DNA from: Escherichia coli phage NG_A1
Sequence record: LC788705.1
DNA: 64,000 nucleotides
Strand: one strand, 5' to 3'
Every line of letters begins with the position of its first letter. Positions within the stretch are counted from its first letter, which is position 1. The position numbers and the translations under genes were made by a program. The notes under the pieces were generated by a model. That model was not told where the DNA came from. It saw nothing but the letters and a program-made list of their open reading frames with translations, and did not search any database. This document shows, piece after piece, positions 2,376-39,301 of the stretch.

Positions 2376-2480
2376 TTTAAGCCTCCAAATTTTTGGGAAA
2401 ATTTTCAACCGTCCTTAAACGGTGTAAAGGCATTATAACAAAAAGGCCACCATAAAAGGCGACCTTTACAAAACTTTACA

Positions 2481-2975: not shown

Positions 2976-3040
2976 TAGTTAGCCTCCTATTAATTAACAA
3001 GGGAATAGTAAAGCGGGGTAACAATCCCCGCTTAATATTA

Positions 3041-4058
3041 TTACTCGCTTTCGGTGTTAGTGGTAAAAGTAGAAATATCGATACCTTTTACCATTTCATC
3101 AATCATTTCAGCGATGTTAAAACTTTGCACCATTTCCAGCATTGCCGCTTCCATAGCCGCCCCTGCTACCGCTTTCGCCTTTTGGTTATTTGGGGCGTAT
3201 TGGTCAACCGCTACACTCAGCAGGTTAGCAATCACTACTCGACCAATAGGCGTATCGATATAACCTTTGATCATGAATGGTGCTTTTTTAGCCGCTACTT
3301 TCGTAATTTGAGTTAATGCAATTTTACCCGCCTCCAGTTTTGCAGCATTTACAACAGCGGATTTATTGGCGGCAACAATGTTAGCAATCTTGGTCATGGT
3401 GTTTTTTCCTTTGTTTTCAGTAGTTTGAGTGTTAACGCTTTGAGTGTTAGAATTTACAGCATGGTTTTCTACGCTGTCAATAATCTGATCTTCATCTTTC
3501 CAGAAAGAAAAACCAGCGCTTTCTATATCCCCATCATAAATATATGGGTATAGCTCCCGTGGTAACAAAAAATTACCGTCGTCATCAAAAGCCATTATAC
3601 CAGTATATTGAGATCCGTCGTTATCCGGCTTATGCCATCCAGCTGGTAAATACTTCCAGATAACATCTAAAAATCCCTCAATACTAGAAAGTCCGTTTAT
3701 CAGATCAAGCCCAATAAGCTCAAAACCATTTATATTAAATGATTGACGGCCTGAATTGCTATGATACGCAACAATATTATTACCCTGCGCAATAATAAAA
3801 TCGGTATCCGGCCCCGCTCCCCTGCCTGTAAAGATATGGCAATCCCGATTATATATATAAAACTAGCGTTGCCCCTTGCTTATATAATGGTAGAAAACTA
3901 TCCATATCATAGGCGTCATAATCATCAAAAAAGTTTTGATGAATAGTTTCAGCCTTGTTAATAAAATGTTTAATGCTGGTTGACTTGCTACCGTCCAGCA
4001 GGTTGCGCAATGCACCTTTTAAAACGGTGGCATTATCAGGTTTATACAGCCTCATTTG
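3041..4058 (-). CDS. Hypothetical pre-early protein, apparently interrupted by a +1 frameshift near 3849-3865 (fused product ~340 aa)
   Basis: Track ORFs 3849..4199 and 3041..3595 are joined by an 89-codon stop-free, start-less stretch (3596-3862) in the frame of the downstream ORF; strong GAGGGAGG RBS before ATG at 4058. Confidence 0.4.
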
Positions 4059-4320
4059 TTCGGCCTCCCTCGTTAATCGGTGAGTGAATGATATAGATAT
4101 TTGTTCACTAGGGGCAAGAAAAAAGAAAATGTTTTTTATTCCTTGCCTAGCGCCTAGTTTTATGCTAACCGCGCAGCGGTACAGTAAAGAGCAAAACACG
4201 GTGAAGCCACCAGGGCGACTGGTGAAGGCTTTACTTTAATATTACCCCACCGCATTTAGCTCGTTAGAAAGCGTTTTAGGCCGCTTAAAATTAATTGCAG
4301 TCGTTAACACTACCTTTCTA

Positions 4321-4440
4321 CCCTGTATATTTATACAGTAGGATAACATGTGGATAAGTCTGTGGATAAGTCCTTATATCGCCGCCTATCGTGTCAAGTT
4401 AATTTACAAAATGTATAAGGCTGTGGATAACTTAAATGAT
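4321..4440. repeat. Inverted-repeat arm B (~120 bp) carrying DnaA boxes
   Basis: Reverse complement matches 181-300; TGTGGATAA at 4349-4357, 4361-4369 and 4422-4430. Confidence 0.8.
4349..4430 (-). promoter_or_regulatory. Three consensus DnaA boxes on the complementary strand (4349-4357, 4361-4369, 4422-4430)
   Basis: Exact reverse-complement matches to TTATCCACA. Confidence 0.6.
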
Positions 4441-4620
4441 AGTGGTTCTCACTAACTAATTTATGCAGTTATTGTATAACAAAATATAGTTAGTTGGCTA
4501 ATAGGATTTTAAAGTGATTATGAGTCTGCTAATTAAACCTGAAAAACTCATTAGGTAGTCTGCTAATGATTTTGATATAATATAATAGAGATTAAATTAA
4601 TAACATAAGGAAACAATTAG

Positions 4621-5139
4621 ATGCCTAAATATAAAGATATAGATTATGACCTTTTTAATAGTTACTTTTATTATGATGAAACAGCGTTATCATTTTTACG
4701 TTGGCGGGAGGATCACGCCGTCGCAGGTGGTTTAAATGGTAATTATTGGCAAGTTGAACTATTAGACATGGGACAATTCAAAGTACATAGAATTATCTTT
4801 TGTATAATGAATGGCGGTATAGATAGCGAGCTAATGATTGATCATATTGATCGTAACACACGTAACAATAACATCTGGAATCTTCGCGCGGTTGATAGTT
4901 CGCAGAATAATTATAATCGTACTCCTAGTGAGTATGAAAACTGTAAGCGTGCTAATGGTATCCCTAGAAACATTTACGTTAATAAAGTTCGCCCCCGTGA
5001 TAGTTTCGGGCGTGATTATTTAACTGCTCAAATTAAGAATCCTATTACTAACAAGCGTGTTAGTAAGTCTGGTTATGATTTACAAGAGTTATTATTATGG
5101 CTTGAAGCTAAAAAAGCTGAATTTGGAATTGTCAATTAA
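4621..5139 (+). CDS. HNH homing endonuclease (HNH_3-type)
   Basis: Motif IDHIDRNTRNNNIWNLR; AT-rich flanks; extended -10 TGATATAAT upstream. Confidence 0.7.
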   Translation: MPKYKDIDYDLFNSYFYYDETALSFLRWREDHAVAGGLNGNYWQVELLDMGQFKVHRIIFCIMNGGIDSELMIDHIDRNTRNNNIWNLRAVDSSQNNYNRTPSEYENCKRANGIPRNIYVNKVRPRDSFGRDYLTAQIKNPITNKRVSKSGYDLQELLLWLEAKKAEFGIVN

Positions 5140-5637
5140 TTAATTTTATAAAATAACTCGTTTAGTCTTGATTTTTAAAAGTCAATATCTTTTACAACTA
5201 TTTTTCAATTTTGCTTTTGTTAAATATTTGTTAAATCGAAAATAAGCCGCCTAAAACGCCCTAGAACGCGATGAAGTTTTTAGCCATGCCATTGCATTGC
5301 CTGCCCTCGTTTATCGCTGCCACGAGCTTTTTAGATTTTGTCAAGTAGGGCAAAGCAAATATAAATGAAAAATTACTTGCCTATCTGCTTTATTTTGTGG
5401 TATTCGCGCGCCCGTTTCTTTTAATTTTAGGCCGTCGCCGCACGGTGTCCGGTGAGTTTTACCTTTACGTTTCTTTACAAAAATAAGGTTGCGCCGTTTT
5501 TAGTATTTGCTATTATTTATCTCGTAGGACGGCAACGGACTACAACGGCGGGAAGTTTACCGCCGCGCTCTTTAAAAATTGGGTACATCTTAAAGCCTAT
5601 CGGCGGTAAACTTATTACATTATAAGGAATCGACGAT

Positions 5638-5841
5638 ATGAAACAAACGCTTTTGATCACTGGCAAGCCTATTAAGGCACTAGATAGCAAAACAAAAAAC
5701 TTGTTGACAGTAGCACAAAGATCAGTAAAATATAGATTCACGCAGTACAAGAAAGGTCGCCAGCAAGGTCTGGAAATGATCTGGCGAAATATTATGATTG
5801 ACCTAAAAGAAAATCATAAAAAATTGCAAAAAATTGTTTGA
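5638..5841 (+). CDS. Small basic protein (67 aa) flanked by a 24-bp inverted repeat
   Basis: ORF track; Lys/Arg-rich; inverted repeat at 5581-5604 and 5859-5882. Confidence 0.4.
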   Translation: MKQTLLITGKPIKALDSKTKNLLTVAQRSVKYRFTQYKKGRQQGLEMIWRNIMIDLKENHKKLQKIV

Positions 5842-6071
5842 CAACCTAGCCGATAGGTTTTAAGATGTACCCAGTTCGATAAGAGCGATAACTTGATAAA
5901 ATTTGACGGTCGGTGCTTACCATAATGCATCCCGCCCCCTAACGGGATATAGCGGCCTACGTGGAGTTCTTTAAAATTGATTATATTGGCGAGCGGATTG
6001 TTACTTATTACCTGCTGTTACTTTCTAGCAGGTAATGCGGAACAATCCCCAAATAACTAGGAGTTTATATT

Positions 6072-6323
6072 ATGCAAAACGTTATTACCGCGCCGAAAGT
6101 TGGTCAATCCGTCTTCATTCCTTTCGTTACTAAAACGGATGAATTAACCGGAAAGGCCGAACGTATTAAAGGTGCGGCGCTTATGCCGTTCGATACAATC
6201 GACGCGGTATACGCTGAAAATGAACGTAGTAACAACGGCAAGCCCGTTTTTAGCGTTCGCGTTAAATCCGGCGATGTTGTAAAGGTTGTTCAACGCAACG
6301 AAAAATGGGAAGCTGTATTGTAA
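6072..6323 (+). CDS. Hypothetical pre-early protein (83 aa)
   Basis: ORF with AGGAG RBS; followed by a stem-loop at 6337-6362. Confidence 0.55.
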   Translation: MQNVITAPKVGQSVFIPFVTKTDELTGKAERIKGAALMPFDTIDAVYAENERSNNGKPVFSVRVKSGDVVKVVQRNEKWEAVL

Positions 6324-6419
6324 ATTAGTGTTAACTTTATATCCCCTTATTTCAGGGGGATATAACGATTAACATTAAGTTAATCTAATCCCTTAAATTA
6401 AACTAATAGGAGTTACATC

Positions 6420-6827
6420 ATGACTAACGCTAAAACCGCAAAATTCGCATGGAATGAAGAAAACACTCAGAAAGCTGTTTCCATGTATCAACAGTTAATT
6501 AATGAAAACGGTTTAGATTTCGCAAATAGCGACGGCCTGAAAGAGATTGCAAAAGCAGTAGGCGCGGCCTCCCCCGTATCCGTTCGCTCAAAATTGACCA
6601 GTGCAAAAGCCTATCAAAAAAGCGATAAGCCGCGTAAAGTTGGCGGCGGTAGCTCTGTGCGTAAAGCTCACTATGTGCGCGTTATCGCTAAACATGCTAT
6701 TGATTCCGGCATTATCAAAGACGCCGATGATTTGGCAAGCCTTGAAAGTGCAAAACTTGAAACGCTGGACGCAGTAGCGCAATTGTTAGGCGTTGCCGAT
6801 GAAGTAAAACAGGCCGCAGGCGAATAA
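6420..6827 (+). CDS. A2: Putative pre-early DNA-binding protein, A2-like (135 aa)
   Basis: Size and position immediately upstream of the A1-like gene; basic C-terminal half; AGGAG RBS; name assigned from memory of T5. Confidence 0.45.
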   Translation: MTNAKTAKFAWNEENTQKAVSMYQQLINENGLDFANSDGLKEIAKAVGAASPVSVRSKLTSAKAYQKSDKPRKVGGGSSVRKAHYVRVIAKHAIDSGIIKDADDLASLESAKLETLDAVAQLLGVADEVKQAAGE

Positions 6828-6917
6828 TAGTTATATCTTGCCCCCTTTTAGTGAGGGGGCAATAATATAACTGTTTAGCGATAGTTATTTTCTTCCCTTA
6901 AATCAGGAGTTTTAAAA

Positions 6918-7115
6918 ATGGTTTTCTCCCCTACTGAATCTTTAATTCTAGGCTTATTTATTATGGCGGCCTCCCTATTATTCGCTTATTTTCAAAATGA
7001 TTTAGATTCGTATTATTTTAAACGTAAATCTAAATTAGCAAAACGTTTAGGTCTGCTTTGTTTTATCGCTGCCGTTGCTTGTGGTGTTAGTTCTAGCCTA
7101 GTGCCTTTAAATTAA
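6918..7115 (+). CDS. Small membrane protein (65 aa, two predicted TM helices)
   Basis: ORF with CAGGAG RBS; hydrophobic stretches LILGLFIMAASLLFAYF and LLCFIAAVACGVSSSLV. Confidence 0.5.
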   Translation: MVFSPTESLILGLFIMAASLLFAYFQNDLDSYYFKRKSKLAKRLGLLCFIAAVACGVSSSLVPLN

Positions 7116-7205
7116 TATTGCAAATTATAACGCCTATTGTTCGAGGCGTTATATTTGGCAATATTGCCGTTACTAACCTAATCCCTTTAATGGAGTTTTA
7201 TTACT

Positions 7206-8876
7206 ATGATTATTTCCGCAGAAAAACAAACCGTTATCCTGAAAATGGCCGCTGACTTTAACTTCTACGGTAAACGCCTGCGCGCCACTAAATTGGAAGT
7301 TTGTGACGATATTTCGAAAGCGGTATACGATACTACTAAACACTCCACCGCCATTTGTGATTGGTTGGAAGCAAATAAACCAGCGAAACCAAAAGCGGCA
7401 AAAGTAGCAAAAGCCATTAAAAACGATGAGCGCCCAGAAGCGGCGGGAATTGTTTCTAGTACGGTTGAGCAATGGGAAGTAAAACAGGGTAAACGCTTTA
7501 TTATTACGTCGATTCAAAATAATACTTTCCCGCATAAAAACTTTTTAGCCTCACTGGAGCAATTTGCTAAATATATCGGTGCTGATTTGCTTGTTTCTAA
7601 GTATATTTATAATAAAAACGGTTTTCAAAATGGGGAAGGTGCGGATGGAATCAAATATGATTCCGCGTTCGATAAATATATTTGCAGCAAAAACGTGTTT
7701 TTAAATAACCGCCGCTTTGCTTTCATGGCTGAAATTAATGTTTTGCCAACCGCAGATTATCCGCTTTCTGGATTCGCCGAGACTGCAACGGCTTTAAATA
7801 TTGAGGGGCTGGCAATTGGTCACGCTAAAATTACCGCTGAAAGCGTGCCAGCTTTAAAAGGTGAAGTAGTGCGCCGTATGTACTCAACCGGAACGGCAAC
7901 GCTCAAAAACTACATTCAGCAGAAAGCAGGACAAAAAGCGGAAGCACTGCATAACTTCGGTGCGCTTATTGTTGAGTTCGACGACGACGGGGAATTTTTT
8001 GTTCGCCAGCTTGAAACAATGGACGAAAGCGGGGTGTTTTATGATCTGAACGTTTGCGCTACTCCTGCCGGATGCTATGAAACAACGGGGCATGTTTTAG
8101 GCTTGCAATATGGCGATATCCACGCCGAGAAATTAGATGAGGAGTGCGCCGCCGCATCTTGGGGGCATGGTGATACTTATGGGCTTGTGGATATTCTTAA
8201 ACCAAAATATCAGTTTGTACATGACGTGCATGATTTTACATCGCGCAACCATCACAACCGCGCATCGGGTGTATTCCTAGCGAAACAGTATGCAGCCGGA
8301 CGTGATAAAGTTCTGGATGATCTTATCGATACGGGGCGCGTACTGGAATCAATGGAGCGCGATTTTAGTCAAACAATCATTGTTGAATCGAATCACGATT
8401 TGGCGCTATCCCGTTGGCTTGATGATCGTAATGCTAACATCAAAGACGATCCAGCAAACGCCGAGTTATATCACCGCCTGAATGCTGCAATTTACGCGGC
8501 AATCGGTGAACACGACGAAACGTTTAACGTGCTAGATTATGCGTTGCGCAAGGTTGCAGGTTGTGAATTTAACGCCATTTTCCTAACGACTGACCAATCT
8601 TTCAAGATTGCAGGTATTGAATGCGGCGTACACGGTCACAATGGCATTAACGGGAGCCGTGGCAATCCGAAACAGTTTAAGAAATTGGGCAAATTAAACA
8701 CGGGGCACACCCATACCGCCAGCATTTACGGCGGCGTTTATACCGCTGGCGTGTCTGGTAGTCTGGACATGGGTTACAACGTTGGCGCGTCAAGCTGGAC
8801 GCAAACGCATGTTATTACCTATGCAAACGGTCAGCGCACTTTGATCGACTTTAAAAACGGTAAATTCTTTGCGTAA
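7206..8876 (+). CDS. A1: Pre-early protein A1, metallophosphoesterase-like (556 aa)
   Basis: Phosphoesterase-like motifs GDIH, GHGDTYG, ESNHD, GVHGHNG; 556 aa matches T5 A1 size as I recall. Confidence 0.75.
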   Translation: MIISAEKQTVILKMAADFNFYGKRLRATKLEVCDDISKAVYDTTKHSTAICDWLEANKPAKPKAAKVAKAIKNDERPEAAGIVSSTVEQWEVKQGKRFIITSIQNNTFPHKNFLASLEQFAKYIGADLLVSKYIYNKNGFQNGEGADGIKYDSAFDKYICSKNVFLNNRRFAFMAEINVLPTADYPLSGFAETATALNIEGLAIGHAKITAESVPALKGEVVRRMYSTGTATLKNYIQQKAGQKAEALHNFGALIVEFDDDGEFFVRQLETMDESGVFYDLNVCATPAGCYETTGHVLGLQYGDIHAEKLDEECAAASWGHGDTYGLVDILKPKYQFVHDVHDFTSRNHHNRASGVFLAKQYAAGRDKVLDDLIDTGRVLESMERDFSQTIIVESNHDLALSRWLDDRNANIKDDPANAELYHRLNAAIYAAIGEHDETFNVLDYALRKVAGCEFNAIFLTTDQSFKIAGIECGVHGHNGINGSRGNPKQFKKLGKLNTGHTHTASIYGGVYTAGVSGSLDMGYNVGASSWTQTHVITYANGQRTLIDFKNGKFFA

Positions 8877-8931
8877 ATAAATTATTTCCCCTAGCGGCTT
8901 GAAATATAGCCGCTATTACAGGAGTCAAAAA

Positions 8932-9189
8932 ATGAAAGTTACATTACCCAAAACATTGGACGAAAAAGTATTCATTTCACCGGATGAAATGGAATCTGAT
9001 AAAGTTTACAGCTTCGGGCCTATCCTAGCCGCCAAAACTAATACGGATGGTATTATTTCCGTCGATTCCCGTGATAACGATATTGTCCCTTTTGATGATG
9101 ATGGCGCTTTTTATGAGTGGCTAAGCGATAATAATTTACCCGTAAACGGTGAATTAACGCCGTACCAGATGCAGATTATTATCAAATAA
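8932..9189 (+). CDS. Hypothetical pre-early protein (85 aa from the RBS-supported ATG)
   Basis: ORF track 8899..9189; AGGAG RBS precedes ATG at 8932. Confidence 0.5.
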   Translation: MKVTLPKTLDEKVFISPDEMESDKVYSFGPILAAKTNTDGIISVDSRDNDIVPFDDDGAFYEWLSDNNLPVNGELTPYQMQIIIK

Positions 9190-9227
9190 ATTAAATCCAT
9201 TATTAAACTAATTGGGGTTTTATAAAT

Positions 9228-9626
9228 ATGAAAAAGCAAAATATTCCATTCGATCGCGCTCAATCTTCTATTGTTCTGGTTTATTCTAATGGCGAACGTT
9301 ACCACGTCGAGGCGGGGCACGTTATTGATGAATTACTAGACTTTAATGACGCTTTGCAGGTTACTACCTTTGCCTATACGCAAGCCCGCGCAAGTAGCTA
9401 CATTAAGGCCGTAGGCGTTTATGTTGACACGGTGAAGCAAGAAACGATTATCATCGACGCAGTAAAATCCGGTCTAGCCTTTGCAGTTGTCGCGCCTTGC
9501 CCCGCTTGCCTCGATGATCAATTGATCAGCGCAAAGGTATATACCTGCGCGGGTATCCGTTCCCATGTATCAGGTGAGGATGTTAGTTTTATCGCTGATG
9601 CGTTGGCTTTTGGTCTGGCGTTCTAA
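9228..9626 (+). CDS. Hypothetical pre-early protein (132 aa)
   Basis: ORF track; followed by a stem-loop at 9640-9668. Confidence 0.5.
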   Translation: MKKQNIPFDRAQSSIVLVYSNGERYHVEAGHVIDELLDFNDALQVTTFAYTQARASSYIKAVGVYVDTVKQETIIIDAVKSGLAFAVVAPCPACLDDQLISAKVYTCAGIRSHVSGEDVSFIADALAFGLAF

Positions 9627-9705
9627 TAGTTAATTTATTATTACCCGCTATTTATAAGCGGGTAATGCTGAATAAACTAAATCCCTTAAATGGAGAACGT
9701 AACAA

Positions 9706-10440
9706 ATGAATAAAGCTATTATTAATTCTTTCCGTAATTTCCCGCATATTTCCCGCGTCATGATTTGGGATTTAGACGGCACTATCATTAATTCTTTCCA
9801 TCGCGTAGCGCCTTGCTTTGATAGCGAGGGCAATTTAGATTTAAATAAGTATAAAAATGAAGCCTGCAAACATCATTTAATAATGCAAGATTCCTTATTG
9901 CCATTGGTTGAATATATGCGCCAGTGCATGAATGACGCAAATACTTTAAACATTATTTGCACCGCTCGACTGATGAGCAAGTCGGACTATTATTATTTGC
10001 GTAAACAAGGGTTGCGCGGTCGTGGCGATAGCAATATCCGCGTGTTTTCTCGCGATACACTGCATAAATATTTTAAAGCTGATAAAGTTAGCGAGATATA
10101 CCACAGCAAAGACGCAGTATATAAATCTTATTACTTTGAATTATTTAAACAATTATATCCGAACGCTGATTTTACAATGATTGATGATCATAAAGGCGTG
10201 CTATCAGCGGCGGCATCATACGGATTTAAAACGCTGGATGCGCAAGCCGTTAATGATATTCTATCAATAGGTGTAACATTAATAGGTGAAACCTTTATTG
10301 ATGAATCGCTCGACGATGATAATGATTATCAATTCCTAGCTGACCGTTTAAAATTATGCTGGGAAGGTATGACCGAGGAAGAACGCGCAGAATATAGTTG
10401 CAGCCCGCAACAATATATTGAGAAATTAAAAGTTGCCTAA
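9706..10440 (+). CDS. dmp: HAD-superfamily phosphatase, T5 dmp-like 5'-deoxyribonucleotidase (244 aa)
   Basis: HAD motif I IWDLDGTII near the N-terminus; TGGAG RBS; position matches the T5 pre-early set. Confidence 0.65.
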   Translation: MNKAIINSFRNFPHISRVMIWDLDGTIINSFHRVAPCFDSEGNLDLNKYKNEACKHHLIMQDSLLPLVEYMRQCMNDANTLNIICTARLMSKSDYYYLRKQGLRGRGDSNIRVFSRDTLHKYFKADKVSEIYHSKDAVYKSYYFELFKQLYPNADFTMIDDHKGVLSAAASYGFKTLDAQAVNDILSIGVTLIGETFIDESLDDDNDYQFLADRLKLCWEGMTEEERAEYSCSPQQYIEKLKVA

Positions 10441-10505
10441 CAATTAAAGTTGAAATAGTCACGGTGTGTAATGATAACATGCCGTGACTATTAGCTTGCT
10501 AAGTA

Positions 10506-10544
10506 CCGGGCGGTAATGAGACTCATTCTCATCTGGAGGGCCAC
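10506..10544 (+). repeat. ~40-bp element CCGGGCGGTAATGAGACTCATTCTCATCTGGAG, copy 2
   Basis: Direct repeat of the element at 484-530, ~10.0 kb downstream, just after the dmp-like gene. Confidence 0.6.
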
Positions 10545-10591
10545 TGGACACACCTCCATGTGTAATCTTATGAAATTTGGCAAAAAGTCAA

Positions 10592-10837
10592 TTAGCGCAT
10601 AGAAGGGTCATCAAAACGATGTTCAGGTTTAAACTCACGAAATCTCTTCCGCGACGCCCGAGATCCATCCGACCATTCTCGCTCAAACTCCGCACGTTTC
10701 TCGTCAAACTTCCGCTCCCTTTCCGCAATCTCCCGCGTCACTCCCGCAATATATTTACGATGCTTGTTGATTGCCGCAGTTGTCCCGAAAACCCCCGCGA
10801 GTATCCCGATAATAAAAGCAATTACAATACTAAACAT
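10592..10837 (-). CDS. Small membrane-anchored protein (81 aa) with charged C-terminal domain
   Basis: N-terminal TM helix FSIVIAFIIGILAGVFGTTAAI followed by an Arg/Glu-rich tail. Confidence 0.5.
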   Translation of the reverse strand: MFSIVIAFIIGILAGVFGTTAAINKHRKYIAGVTREIAERERKFDEKRAEFEREWSDGSRASRKRFREFKPEHRFDDPSMR

Positions 10838-11024
10838 CTAATTCCCTCTCAATTTGCAGAATACGGGTACTATCACAACGTTGCAGTAGTGCTAGCTTTT
10901 CTAGAGTAACTTGTTGTTGTTTTACCTGAGCTTCTAGAGTTTTTAGGCGAACGTACACGGTGTAAGAAATAATGAAAACTGCCCAGACTAGTATTACTGT
11001 TAGTGTAGCTACTACCTCCATCAT
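10830..11024 (-). CDS. Small membrane-anchored coiled-coil protein (64 aa)
   Basis: N-terminal TM helix, then heptad-like LKTLEAQVKQQQVTLEKLALL. Confidence 0.5.
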   Translation of the reverse strand: MMEVVATLTVILVWAVFIISYTVYVRLKTLEAQVKQQQVTLEKLALLQRCDSTRILQIERELDV

Positions 11025-11128
11025 TTACATTTCTCCGATAGTAAGGTTTCGATTCTAGCTAAGTGATTATCTAAGATACATTGCCCCATAATCACAATCC
11101 CTAGTAATGCAATAATTACCCATTCCAT
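11021..11128 (-). CDS. Small membrane peptide (35 aa)
   Basis: Hand-translated MEWVIIALLGIVIMGQCILDNHLARIETLLSEKCK; TAATG and ATGA overlaps with neighbours. Confidence 0.35.
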   Translation of the reverse strand: MEWVIIALLGIVIMGQCILDNHLARIETLLSEKCK

Positions 11129-11256
11129 TAAATCCATCCCGCCATAGCTGCTAACCAAAAACCTACGAAAATAAAGAATAGGATAGTTCCGAATCCAAAG
11201 CTATTAATCCAGCTATCGTACACTTCTCCACGTCTGCTCTTTCTTTTGTTTGACAT
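11128..11256 (-). CDS. Small membrane peptide (42 aa)
   Basis: Hand-translated MSNKRKSRRGEVYDSWINSFGFGTILFFIFVGFWLAAMAGWI; AGGAG RBS. Confidence 0.4.
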   Translation of the reverse strand: MSNKRKSRRGEVYDSWINSFGFGTILFFIFVGFWLAAMAGWI

Positions 11257-11434
11257 ATCTTTCGTGCTCCTATAAATATGGTATTTTAAAATATTTTATA
11301 ATTTGTGTAATAACCAACCATGCTTGTGACTTCCTAGAAGGACTTCTACTTTTCTTACATAGTGGTTTCTGCCAATATACCATCCAAAAAATAAAAAATT
11401 TAGTTTACTTGGATGTCTTTTTGCTTTATACTAA

Positions 11435-11701
11435 TTACAGGTAGTTAGATTGCTCTAGTTTAAATTTACAATCACCGTATTTAAGATCAAACTGACTGAG
11501 ATCCCACCACCCAAACTTAGTACGGAGCTGTACTACTGGGAAGCGATCTCCCTTAATACGAACTTTTTGAATCTTGAGGCCGTAATGTTCTTCTCCCGCA
11601 CCGCCAAAAGATTTTACAAATCCAGTACAAAATGGTTTGGGAGCAGGTGCACAACCAGATAACATAACTGCGGCAACTAGTGCAATCACAAACTTTTTCA
11701 T
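11435..11701 (-). CDS. llp: Lipoprotein Llp-like, candidate receptor-blocking superinfection-exclusion protein (88 aa)
   Basis: Signal peptide with lipobox LSGC; divergent from and adjacent to the receptor-binding protein gene; own TTGCTT-N17-TATAAT promoter. Confidence 0.7.
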   Translation of the reverse strand: MKKFVIALVAAVMLSGCAPAPKPFCTGFVKSFGGAGEEHYGLKIQKVRIKGDRFPVVQLRTKFGWWDLSQFDLKYGDCKFKLEQSNYL

Positions 11702-11732
11702 ATTTATCTCTCCATTTCTAATTTATGAATCT

Positions 11733-11761
11733 ATTATAGCAAAATAGAGGGATGAAAGCAA
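11733..11761 (-). promoter_or_regulatory. Sigma70-type early promoter for llp (TTGCTT-N17-TATAAT)
   Basis: -35 at 11756-11761 and -10 at 11733-11738 on the minus strand, 17-bp spacer. Confidence 0.65.
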
Positions 11762-11786
11762 ATACATTTTTATAATAGGAGATTAT

Positions 11787-13544
11787 ATGGGTTTTTTCGC
11801 TGGAAAATATAGCGATGGTAAGACCGTACTATCCTTAAATACTGAATCTGGTGGTGACATTAATCGTCACTATAGTCCAAATAATAATAGTATTTTTCAT
11901 AGTGATATGCCATTTGTTCTAGTTGATGGTACTTATGAGGTAGGATTAGGTGATGCCGGGAATGGGTTTTTCGTATGTCAGATGCCTCCTGATATAGTAA
12001 ATATTAAATCTAATGATCCTGGTAGAGTTATACTAACTGCTATTGAAATTAACGGCACTCACAGAGCTTTTCTTAATGGTACTCAGAGTAAAGTTGGTCA
12101 AACTATAGTTGCCACTCAAGCAGATCCCTTTAGATCTTTTGCTAGTGTTTCTCAAACCAGTGGATTTGCCTTTGGTAATAGTCTAGCATCCGGCACTTAT
12201 AATTATAATCCCTCTCTAGGGCACGAAGAATCTATCTCTAGGAGTGGTACAGGGGGTACTACGTTACATAGTACCTACCATGGGATAGTTAGGCCCGGTG
12301 CGGGAGCTCCTGTAGGTATTACTGTTGCAGAAGCTTTTGCACAATTAGGTTTTCCTATTAATAGTAGCACAGTACCTATAGATGGCAATAACCCGTACTA
12401 TTGGGATCCTGGATGGATATCACCTCTAGGAGCAGCGCATAGAGGGCATGATTGGTTTTATGTCTGCAATTCTAATATACGTGGATATGGTGGGGTTAGG
12501 CAAGGGCTCCCAGGTAATGTAAATACTATGTACCACGACGGTGGGAACAGATTTGTTTGTAGGGGATCTACTACTAATCTGGCCAACCAGTCTGGCAATC
12601 CTACGGTAATACAGGACTGGTATAATATAACTCCTACTAAGGTTATTTGGTATGTTCTTAATTTAAGGTACTCTAATAGTGGAATGAGTATTTCAGGCAA
12701 CCCCTTTACTGGTTCTGATATTCTTATATCTCCTTCTAATTTCATAATTAAAGGGGTAAGTCTCCCTAATACCGGGTATAAATTTATAAATCAGAATGCT
12801 TTTGGTAACCTAGGTTACCGTCCTGATATGGAGTATATAGGAAATAACGCAGCGTATACCGGGGTTTTTGGGGATACCACGGCAAGGTGTGAACTTGTAG
12901 GGTCTAGTAATGGAGGAGTATGGTCTCCTGTAGACTATGGTGGAGCTAAATCCCAAATTAGCATTTACAAATTCGGAGCTGGTAAGCAATGGTATGTAAA
13001 CTCTAGGGATAATACTATCGGTAATGAACACGGGGTTGTTTGGGGACCATCAGCAGTTCCATTACGACTTTTTGGTGGAAATGTAGGTAGTTCTTATATG
13101 GGAGATGATATTACTCCCAGCTACCCAGGAACGGGTGATAGATACGTTGGTTTATCAACTATTGGGCTAGGTATACCGGGTGGCAATGCTACAGTAATTC
13201 TTACCACTGAAGTTATATCAGGTAACCTTAACTGTGCAGGTGTTCCTGCTAATACATGGAATAACGGTGTGTTTCAAGTGCAAGGAAGAAGAGCATATAG
13301 CTATAGCGGCGGGGATGCAATATTCCACCAGATTTTAACGCTACCTGTGGGCTATCTAGTACCTTTTCATACTACATCTGCTTTTAGATATACACCTAAC
13401 AATGCTCTAAGTAGAAACAGTTTTATATACACTGTTAAAAATTTAGGAAATGGAAATGTAGAGTTAGGAGTAGTTATGCACGTGAGTTTGGGTAGTGCAG
13501 TTTTCCTACCTAGATTAAGAGTAACAGTTCAACGCCTTACCTAA
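11787..13544 (+). CDS. Receptor-binding tail protein, pb5/Oad-like (585 aa)
   Basis: N-terminus [41 protein letters not shown] resembles the T5 pb5 N-terminus as I recall it; divergent pairing with llp; Gly/Asn/Ser-rich. Confidence 0.6.
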
Positions 13545-15362: not shown

Positions 15363-15410
15363 GGATGGGATACTACTCAGTTGGTATCCCATTCCTGTAT
15401 TTTAAAATCC
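15363..15410 (+). terminator. Intrinsic terminator after the terminase gene
   Basis: Hairpin GGATGGGATAC...GTATCCCATTCC followed by a T-rich tract. Confidence 0.5.
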
Positions 15411-20377: not shown

Positions 20378-20406
20378 AAGGAGAGCTTCGGCTCTCCTTT
20401 TTTATT
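20378..20406 (+). terminator. Intrinsic terminator after the major capsid gene
   Basis: Hairpin AAGGAGAGC-TTCG-GCTCTCCTT followed by TTTTTTATT. Confidence 0.8.
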
Positions 20407-24920: not shown

Positions 24921-24981
24921 AGAACTCCTAGATGCTGTTGCTGATTTTGCAGATAAGTGTATTAAAAGCTCAGCATCTAAA

Positions 24982-37510: not shown

Positions 37511-39240
37511 ATGGTAACTAAAACAGTAATTCCTACGGATATTACAAAACTTAAAAATGAGTCACTTAACAAGAATAATAACTTAAGTGACTTAGCAGAC
37601 CGTGCAGCAGCATGGCTAAATGTGCGTCCTATTGGGTCCACCCCTCTTGCGGGGGACCCTGTTGGGGACTACGATGCTGCAACCAAACGTTGGGTAGAGA
37701 ATAAGATTAACACTGGTACAGTCGGCCCCACTATGAATGGTGTTATGAACTACGGCGTTGGTGATTTCCACCTTCGAGATAGTCGTGCATATATTCAACC
37801 ATACGAAGTCGTTTCTGACGGACAGCTTCTTAATAGGGCTGACTGGCCTGAACTTTGGGCGTATGCACAAATGGTTGGGGCTATAGATGATTCAGTTTGG
37901 TTAGGAGATAAATTCCAGCGCGGTAAGTACTCATCAGGTAATGGAACAACAACCTTTCGTGTTCCAGATAAGAATGGGGTGCAGGAGGGATCAATACGCG
38001 CTCTTTATGGCCGTGGAGATGGTGGGAATAGTGGTGCAAATGGGCAACTGTTCGAATCCGCTGCGCCTAATATTACAGGTTTTTCACCACATATGCCTCT
38101 CAAACCTATGCCCAGGCATTAGGACATACAGGTGGTTGCTTTAGTGCAAACAATAATGCGTTTCCTGACGGAAGAGGTGACGGAATCGCTCCAGGGTCTA
38201 CAGCTCTTGCTGGACGTTATAATACCTGCGACTTCAATGCCTCAATATCAAGTCCGATTTACGGGGCATCAACAGATGAGATTCTTACACGAAACTTTGT
38301 CGGCGTCTGGGTAATCCGTGCTTCTGGTGGGTTCGTGGCAGCAAATACATCATGGAGTGTTATTAACGCTGATAAAACAACCCCCGATTCAGGTGTTGTT
38401 GTTTCTGGTGGTAGTGTTAAATCTGAATATAAATCTCCCAGTGCAAGTGTAACAGCGGAACTAAAATCAAGTAAAGTAATTAATGGTGCATGGGGTGTTA
38501 GCTTAACTATAACAGATGATAGAGGGATCCCTGTAAGCATTAAGTATGACAGTAATGGTCAGTTTTCAACATCTCATAGGCCATCTGGAGTCGGTACTGG
38601 GAGTTCCTATACTCATTGCGCTTATCGCGCGCCAGACTGGTGGAATAACACAGCATATAGTGCCTTCGTACCAATTCTTGGAGGTGGTAGCGGTAATTCA
38701 CTAAAGAACTATAGATCTTTTGCTTGTTTTGGACAAATATCTTATCCTGATTCTAGTAATAGTTATCCTAGAGCTGCAATTGCTCAAGTAAGGGATTGGG
38801 CACTACCAGATGGTGAACAAGGTAACGGCAAGAGTATTACCGTGTTTACGTTTATTGATAATTCATTTGACCTTCAATATGGGTACAACGATGGTTCGCT
38901 AAACTATATTTTTTCAAAATCTCCAATTTGTGATGAAAGATTAAAGAAAAATATTGAATCCATTGATACTAATATTGCAATAAGTAATATTAAGCAGATG
39001 TCATATAAATCATACATCTATAAAAATGACGAGAATGAACAGGTGCGCCGTGGTTTTATAGCTCAGGATTTACAGAAAATAGATCCCCAATATGTACGGG
39101 AATATGGAGATCCTGGAAGAGAGAAAACGTTGGCCATTGATGAAAACGTTATGTTGCTTGATTCAGTTGCTGCGGTTAAGTGGCTTATTAATAAAGTTGA
39201 GGAGTTGCAAGAAGAAATAAATGTATTGAAAGCTAAGTAA
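37511..39240 (+). CDS. Second tail fibre protein with tail-collar-like domain and C-terminal intramolecular chaperone (S74-type) domain; reading frame interrupted by an apparent -1 frameshift at ~38070-38122
   Basis: Track ORFs 37511..38122 (frame 2) and 38335..39240 (frame 1); frame 1 is stop-free and start-less from 38071 and reads GASTDEILTRNFVGVWVIRASGG; C-terminal DERLKKNIESID...RRGFIAQDLQKIDPQYV chaperone-like. Confidence 0.5.
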
Positions 39241-39283
39241 AAGAAAACCCCAGAGGGATATCCCTCTGGGGTTTATTATTATT
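39241..39283. terminator. Bidirectional intrinsic terminator between convergent late and early modules
   Basis: 10-bp GC-rich stem CCCCAGAGGG-ATAT-CCCTCTGGGG flanked by an A-tract upstream and T-tract downstream. Confidence 0.85.
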
Positions 39284-39301
39284 ATTTATTTGATACGTAG
39301 A

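Follow-up and report, generated by a model that had tools for sequence, protein, structure and literature searches.

Terminator-like hairpins without U-tracts follow nearly every gene of the pre-early operon in a T5-like Escherichia coli phage

Stem-loops placed just behind genes are a familiar element of phages and bacteria, and those that come closest are compared here with the hairpins that follow nearly every gene of the pre-early operon of Escherichia coli phage NG_A1, analysed in a stretch of 64,000 nucleotides (64 kb; hereafter the window) of sequence record LC788705.1. Intrinsic terminators of E. coli and its phages, like the hairpins of the window, combine a GC-rich stem with a short loop located just past a stop codon; however, the window hairpins are tail-less, lie within an operon ahead of promoterless essential genes and reach up to 26 pairs. 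In phage T7, RNase III cleavage between early genes leaves a protective 3′ hairpin, and the early RNase III sites (R0.3–R1.3) share with the window the presence of a long interrupted hairpin in nearly every spacer of a first operon transcribed by the host polymerase, whereas the stems of the window and its relatives measure 8–13 base pairs (bp) at some junctions and show no sequence or Rfam similarity to those sites. The promoter-early stem-loop (PeSL) cassette junctions and the stable intercistronic hairpins of phage T4 also place stem-loops beside small early genes of variable content, where a shared junction sequence could mediate shuffling, but the stem-loops of the window are not followed by an early promoter and their shared motif is found at the ribosome-binding site rather than at a promoter. 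Finally, intercistronic stabilisers of polycistronic mRNAs, known from selective RNA processing and stabilisation, such as the repetitive extragenic palindromic (REP) sequence between malE and malF and those of the Rhodobacter puf and Clostridium cip-cel operons, have been proposed to set segmental stability and product stoichiometry (PMC4423207, PMC10311766). Like the hairpins considered here, these stem-loops are stable, free of U-tracts and located at cistron 3′ ends in one transcript, although the window hairpins form no repeated sequence family comparable to REP.

Part of this layout had already been marked in T5 annotations. Record AY587007 lists a 'palindrome A' between dmp and ORF002, a 'palindrome B' between A2 and T5.005, and a 'putative rho-independent terminator' downstream of dmp, 69–105 nucleotides (nt) from the genome end, which correspond to the junctions here called J6, J2 and J7, respectively; in the BB1 record, the equivalent of J1 is annotated as a terminator. 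The RefSeq T5 record marks no hairpin in the pre-early operon, and J1, J3, J4 and the hairpin of the 5′ untranslated region (5′ UTR) are unannotated in the T5 records examined. The T5 hairpins after A2 and dmp differ in sequence from those of the window, which indicates replacement and not homology. As for the literature, the BF23 paper gives terminators only as ARNold predictions, the Davison 2020 preprint covers the iss repeats and not the pre-early hairpin junctions, and the CRISPRi-ART and daunorubicin/Bas33 papers contain no transcript-end data. The element type is familiar from T7, T4 and bacterial operons; what is added here is its systematic layout, its covariation, the bias to the sense strand and conservation throughout the family, which makes the advance an incremental one.

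Hairpins at the gene junctions of the pre-early operon

The pre-early operon occupies positions 6072–10440 of the plus strand and, by comparison with T5 records, has the order T5.007-A2-T5.005-A1-ORF-T5.002-dmp, where ORF is a variable open reading frame of 85 codons. All of its genes except this one are directly followed by a hairpin, and a further hairpin precedes the first gene:

5995–6048, plus strand: hairpin of the 5′ UTR, ahead of the first gene; 12-bp core at 6006–6037 plus a 7-bp lower stem
6325–6378, plus strand: J1, 3′ of the T5.007 homolog; core 6337–6365 with 12 uninterrupted bp; 26 pairs, −24.7 kcal/mol
6826–6875, plus strand: J2, 3′ of A2; core 6838–6862; 21 pairs, −27.8 kcal/mol; overlaps the TAA TAG stops
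7113–7166, plus strand: J3, 3′ of the T5.005 homolog; core 7126–7153; −23.5 kcal/mol; starts at the stop codon
8892–8915, plus strand: J4, 3′ of A1; 8 bp with an 8-nt loop UGAAAUAU; −15 kcal/mol with flanks; the weakest
9190–9227, plus strand: 38-nt spacer after the 85-codon frame, the sole hairpin-free spacer of the operon
9627–9679, plus strand: J6, 3′ of the T5.002 homolog; core 9639–9667; 21 pairs, −22.8 kcal/mol
10447–10497, plus strand: J7, 3′ of dmp; core 10456–10490, extendable to 10456–10492, with 14 bp in the core

When their A/U-rich lower stems are included, J1, J2, J6 and J7 comprise 21–26 pairs with energies of −22 to −28 kcal/mol, and the stems extend into the stop codons at J1, J2, J3 and J6; in the case of J1, the lower stem of the listed span ends 1 nt past the stop codon, and the 26 pairs and −24.7 kcal/mol are those of a fold that spans 6321–6382 with three extra outer pairs. 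The z-scores of the hairpins against dinucleotide shuffles ranged from −3.3 to −5.0, and the 5′-UTR hairpin, J1, J2, J3, J6 and J7 all fell below the 0.5% quantile of every 60-nt fold in the window, while no hairpin was detected in the spacer at 9190–9227 (z = +0.3). With cores of 8–14 bp and loops of 5–8 nt, the stems match those expected of intrinsic terminators (GC-rich, about 5–14 bp, loop of 3–8 nt). Tiling of the whole window showed that operon spacers of 79–136 nt each carry a strong hairpin devoid of a U-tail, and that elsewhere the genes abut.

A previous sequence-only reading had proposed a stem-loop after every plus-strand gene of the operon and listed five, all of which were recovered within 0–6 nt of where it placed them. 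Its rule held for nearly all genes, since the spacer at 9190–9227 has no hairpin, and J3 (7113–7166) had not been counted. The hairpins it described were real but mostly drawn too short, as they comprise 21–26 pairs except for the 8-bp J4. Thus, the hairpin given as 6337–6362 is J1, whose span is 6325–6378 and core 6337–6365; the approximately 17-bp stem at 6832–6874 is J2, with 21 pairs over 6826–6875; the hairpin at 9640–9668 is J6, extending over 9627–9679 with its core at 9639–9667; and the 10-bp stem at 10462–10498 is J7, located about 6 nt away and with a 14-bp core. The one placed near 8888–8915 corresponds to J4 (8892–8915). The same reading had singled out a perfect palindrome just upstream of A1, which is indeed present, one base from the position given:

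7157–7168, no strand: perfect palindrome GGCAATATTGCC, forming most of the 3′ arm of the J3 lower stem

The window contains 28 perfect 12-nt palindromes versus 19.7 ± 4.3 in shuffled sequences, and in about half of the relatives this site reads GGCAATATTTGCC, with one extra T. The palindrome was rejected as an independent element, and it is uninformative because it is part of J3 and statistically ordinary.

The conservation of the hairpins was evaluated in 57 loci around A1 homologs and five annotated records. The distant A1 homologs in this set (loci L044–L060, 37–49% identity) belong to other phage types with no comparable operon and were uninformative. In about 38 close relatives, every junction retains a hairpin directly after the stop codon. 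In the J1 alignment, 97.5% of the cells are paired and five pairs have changed on both sides, one of them occurring as CG, AU, GC and UA, although most lower-stem pairs are invariant, so that covariation provides no test of them. For J6, 95.5% of the cells are paired and an AU-GC swap divides the sequences 8:8, and for J7 the paired fraction reaches 99.4% with three double-change pairs. When the 3′ partners were slid as a control, pairing at these three junctions fell to 20–54%. The 5′-UTR hairpin is conserved likewise, with covariation. Even more telling than these pair counts is the replacement of whole hairpins by unrelated ones at the same site, with two types after A2, at least five after A1, three to four after T5.002 and two after dmp, distributed mosaically among near-identical phages. 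Some of the replacements are short, as the type-B hairpin found after A2 in T5 and many relatives has 9 bp and several of those after A1 have 8–13 bp. The A2-A1-dmp operon has a hairpin behind each of its genes in Klebsiella phage vB_Kpn13-P1, Pectobacterium phages DU_PP_V and My1, Vibrio phage JSF10 and Aeromonas phage AhSzw-1 as well.

The strand on which the pairing is kept was also examined. When ten alignment groups were pooled, the 160 consensus pairs of the plus strand comprised 1888 Watson-Crick, 167 G.U and 8 A.C cells, versus 33 G.U and 20 A.C cells for the 139 consensus pairs of the minus strand. One-sided changes nearly always yield a G.U pair on the sense strand, which equals an A.C mismatch on the opposite one, and J7 contains tandem U.G/G.U pairs on the sense strand only. 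Consensus fold energy was better on the plus strand in nine of the ten groups, and the minimum free energy of single sequences was lower on that strand at five of six junctions. The excess of G.U over A.C, together with the better plus-strand energies, points to hairpins that act as RNA in the sense transcript and not as DNA; with the compensatory changes, this bias indicates that they are selected as RNA structures.

The window belongs to a T5-like phage of the Demerecviridae. About 480 records of T5-like phages match bases 5400–11400, most closely Salmonella phage Kenya-K37 (93% nucleotide identity), and A1 shares 99.5% protein identity with its counterpart in Salmonella phage VSe12. The genes, assigned by comparison with T5, and the promoter-like sites ahead of them are the following:

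5704–5731, plus strand: strong sigma-70 promoter-like site, TTGACA-16-TAAAAT (11/12), at the position of the T5 pre-early promoter P-H22
5838–5866, plus strand: strong sigma-70 promoter-like site, TTGACA-17-TAAGAT (10/12), at the position of the T5 promoter P-D/E20
6072–6323, plus strand: T5.007 homolog, 83 amino acids (aa), first gene of the operon
6420–6827, plus strand: A2, DNA-binding protein of 135 aa
6918–7115, plus strand: T5.005 homolog, membrane protein of 65 aa
7206–8876, plus strand: A1, 556 aa
8932–9189, plus strand: open reading frame of 85 aa, a variable cassette missing from many relatives
9228–9626, plus strand: T5.002 homolog, 132 aa
9706–10440, plus strand: dmp, 5′-deoxynucleotidase of 244 aa, final gene of the operon

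A promoter scan of the spacers within the operon returned nothing above 9/12, the strong sites being those at 5704 and 5838; therefore, the genes are read as one transcript, which likely starts at the 5838–5866 site. Both strong promoters and a small open reading frame (5638–5841) are flanked by a 39-nt inverted repeat (5566–5604 and 5849–5887, 85% complementary), probably the counterpart of the T5 'inverted repeat A/A′', and since the –10 and start regions of a promoter lie within each arm, the promoters may be divergent twins.

Possible roles in stabilisation, attenuation and processing

The explanation that we favour, with moderate confidence, is that the hairpins are intercistronic RNA stem-loops descended from terminators, whose main role would be to protect 3′ ends and delimit stable mRNA segments and which would attenuate transcription weakly at most. 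According to this proposal, the host RNA polymerase would synthesise a polycistronic pre-early messenger from promoters of the P-H22 and P-D/E20 type at about 5.7–5.9 kb, and the transcript would run through T5.007, A2, T5.005, A1, the variable frame, T5.002 and dmp. Each hairpin, placed directly 3′ of a stop codon and often overlapping it, is kept folded by selection and resembles a terminator hairpin minus most of its U-tract, so that the polymerase would largely read through. The likeliest task of such hairpins would be to block 3′-to-5′ exonucleases and to mark out stable segments of the operon mRNA, whether the polymerase has read through or run off the nearby DNA end or an endonuclease has cut the transcript in the A/U-rich spacers, and slight termination or pausing at each of them would help to set the relative output of the cistrons. 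We infer such a protective or attenuating function from structures that share the known features of stabiliser stem-loops: they are stable, lack a U-tract, lie at cistron 3′ ends inside a polycistronic transcript and are under selection at the RNA level. A similar conserved hairpin is also found in the 5′ UTR, a position in which a terminator would serve little purpose.

The lack of clear U-tracts, which the sequence-only reading had noticed for most of the hairpins, was confirmed by a U-tail score taken as the best case over all sub-stems. This score was 1.3–2.8 for J1–J7 and 1.2 for the 5′-UTR hairpin, versus 3.8–4.8 for five canonical terminators of the window (2442–2467 on the minus strand and others near 20.4, 25.4, 29.1 and 39.3 kb), and none of the junction hairpins passed a terminator scan. 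The best tail of the set is the borderline one of J3 (UUAUAUUU), with six U in the eight nucleotides after a truncated sub-stem of 5 bp. Outside the operon, the tiling found that strong hairpins carry U-tracts at operon ends. Moreover, since no strong promoter precedes the downstream genes and both A1 and A2 are required for infection and second-step transfer in T5 (according to record annotation), efficient termination at the junctions is excluded. The earlier suggestion that the hairpins are processing, stability or attenuating elements rather than full terminators thus agrees with their tails, their position in the operon and their selection as RNA, although My1, DU_PP_V and J3 speak against ruling out termination altogether.

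Terminators elsewhere in the window provide some further observations. Canonical U-tract terminators stand at operon ends outside the pre-early region at 39226–39285, 15363–15394 and near 20378, 25390, 29120 and 56031; the one at 39.2 kb separates convergent genes and has good scores in either orientation. A single strong spacer hairpin of the late region (24921–24980, −19 kcal/mol) has no U-tract, as in the pre-early set. In the leftward pre-early operon on the minus strand, too, each spaced gene is followed by a hairpin (2442–2467, 3011–3033 and about 2110–2140), of which the first is a canonical terminator (AAAGGTCGCC...GGTGGCCTTTTTGTT) and the other two lack a U-tract; one of these tail-less hairpins is followed by TTCCCTTGTTAAT...AGGAG, similar to the plus-strand motif described below.

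Several points weigh against a mainly protective function. At the equivalent positions, the Pectobacterium phages My1 and DU_PP_V have canonical terminators complete with U-tracts (for instance, AAGCCGCTA...TAGCGGCTTTATTTCTTTTT), so that true termination could still play a part in the window. J4 has little stability, with 8 bp and about −10 to −15 kcal/mol, and an energy of −12 kcal/mol is reached by 27% of the coding-sequence control windows, which makes that threshold too lax and leaves only the medians of the comparison meaningful. The relatives are closely related, so that cell counts do not represent independent events, and the consensus-structure method inherently favours G.U over A.C, a bias that the reverse-strand control removes only partly. 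Additionally, literature searches on T5 pre-early terminators, hairpins and transcript ends returned no 3′-end mapping or stability data for T5-like phages.

Among the alternatives, the one that survives best, although we consider it rather doubtful, is that the hairpins are leaky intrinsic terminators, or attenuators, each of which stops a fraction of the polymerases so that the transcript level steps down from T5.007 to dmp. GC-rich cores with loops of 5–8 nt directly after stop codons, the six U behind the truncated core of J3, textbook terminators at the homologous positions of My1 and DU_PP_V and the canonical terminator at 2442–2467 among the similar hairpins of the neighbouring leftward operon all agree with it, as do the terminator labels given by other annotators to the equivalents of J7 in T5 and J1 in BB1. 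Read-through would then be coupled to translation, given the overlap between stems and stop codons: a ribosome close behind the polymerase would keep the hairpin from forming. However, the U-tail scores fall well short of what the terminators of this genome reach, termination does not require stems of such length and stability, and the 5′ UTR carries a conserved hairpin of the same style. Furthermore, five to six successive terminators ahead of dmp would each need a very low efficiency.

A less probable alternative, which we regard as quite unlikely, assigns the hairpins to RNase III, which would cut the long interrupted stems as in the T7 early region and free monocistronic messages with a protective 3′ hairpin. 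The 21–26 pairs with small bulges of J1, J2, J3, J6 and J7, equivalent to about two helical turns, would suit such a substrate, and the presence of one hairpin per intercistronic spacer in an early operon transcribed by the host polymerase recalls T7 by analogy. On the other hand, J4 has 8 bp only, and the replacements found among relatives are likewise short (9 bp for type B after A2 and 8–13 bp after A1), which means that the hairpin was kept and its length was not; this lack of conservation of stem length argues against RNase III as a general explanation. Most lower-stem pairs, moreover, are invariant and escape a covariation test, and there is no match to an Rfam family, a scan of positions 4000–12000 on both strands (E ≤ 1) having returned nothing.

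Junction motif, possible cassette exchange and a candidate genome-end signal

Besides the hairpins, the junctions share the motif TCCCTTWAAT, which has four exact matches in the window, all on the plus strand and all in the pre-early operon, 1–16 nt upstream of the GGAG of A2, T5.005, A1 and dmp:

6389–6398, plus strand: motif TCCCTTAAAT, upstream of the A2 Shine-Dalgarno sequence
6894–6903, plus strand: motif TCCCTTAAAT, upstream of the Shine-Dalgarno sequence of the T5.005 homolog
7182–7191, plus strand: motif TCCCTTTAAT, upstream of the A1 Shine-Dalgarno sequence
9682–9691, plus strand: motif TCCCTTAAAT, upstream of the dmp Shine-Dalgarno sequence

The motif represents the top direct-repeat family of the region, has an extended form (AAYCTAATCCCTTWAAT), has degenerate copies near 6043, 8886 and 9194, and is kept in My1 and DU_PP_V (ATCCCTTAATTGGAG). 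A literature search for it returned nothing relevant. The motif may act in translation or decay as a signal peculiar to pre-early genes. A broader proposal, to which we give little credence, is that the unit hairpin - AAUCCCUUAAAU - Shine-Dalgarno, found before almost every gene of the operon across the Demerecviridae, constitutes a dedicated module for the post-transcriptional control of pre-early genes.

The shared junction sequences also bear on a very improbable alternative, in which the hairpins act at the DNA level as protein-binding or cruciform sites or, together with the junction motif, as recombination modules that shuffle cassettes in the manner of the T4 PeSLs. This alternative would account for the 21-nt repeat shared by the junctions (AAYCTAATCCCTTWAATGGAG, family D1), the paralogous arms of the 5′-UTR hairpin and J6 (family D20), the mosaic exchange of hairpin types among near-identical phages and the variable gene content between A1 and T5.002, where the flanking hairpin and motif stay. 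However, it is stem pairing and not stem sequence that is conserved, which argues against sequence-specific protein binding; the strong bias of G.U over A.C indicates sense RNA; and no promoter follows the stem-loops, unlike in PeSLs. A role in recombination would be a by-product and would fail to explain why pairing is kept. Two further candidates were rejected, namely REP-like repeated palindromes, as the direct-repeat search found the motif near the ribosome-binding site and one related pair of arms and no common hairpin sequence, and monocistronic or PeSL-like units with a promoter after each hairpin, given the lack of strong promoter-like sites.

Two observations concern the history of these junctions. 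The 5′-UTR hairpin (5995–6048) and J6 (9627–9679) share paralogous arms and 3′ flanks (TTATTACCYGCT ... GGTAATGC.GAA), indicating that a junction unit was duplicated. In the region from A1 to T5.002 (8877–9227; loci L004–L043), near-identical phages carry no gene, the 85-aa frame, a T5.003-like frame or inserts of about 600 nt, and the hairpin after A1 and the junction motif persist whatever the gene content; with variable genes beside a constant hairpin and motif, this region looks like a cassette-exchange hot spot.

A further conserved sequence is found beyond the operon. In T5, annotation places the dmp stop codon 123 bp away from the physical left genome end. In the window, GGGCGGTAATGAGACTCATTCTCAT lies at 10508–10532, about 70 nt past the dmp stop, and is nearly unchanged in Demerecviridae of Pectobacterium, Vibrio and Aeromonas; the equivalent T5 region lies within about 120 nt of the physical left end, and its sequence there differs. 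Imperfect palindromes related to it (ATGAGAnTnATTCTCAT) are present at 1–17 and 497–513. This sequence is a candidate genome-end or terminase signal.

Implications for T5-like phages

For the annotation of these genomes, the hairpins described here serve as a warning that those of pre-early regions should not be labelled terminators by default. If the proposed control module were true, it could be a target for a phage factor, as in the A1-dependent shut-off of pre-early genes, or for a host RNase that times the burst of pre-early proteins, and it might double as a junction for the exchange of gene cassettes. The genes by which T5-like phages kill the host and draw in the remaining genome lie in the pre-early operon, and hairpins selected across the family at its junctions offer concrete, mutable targets for questions of mRNA stability, attenuation or processing.

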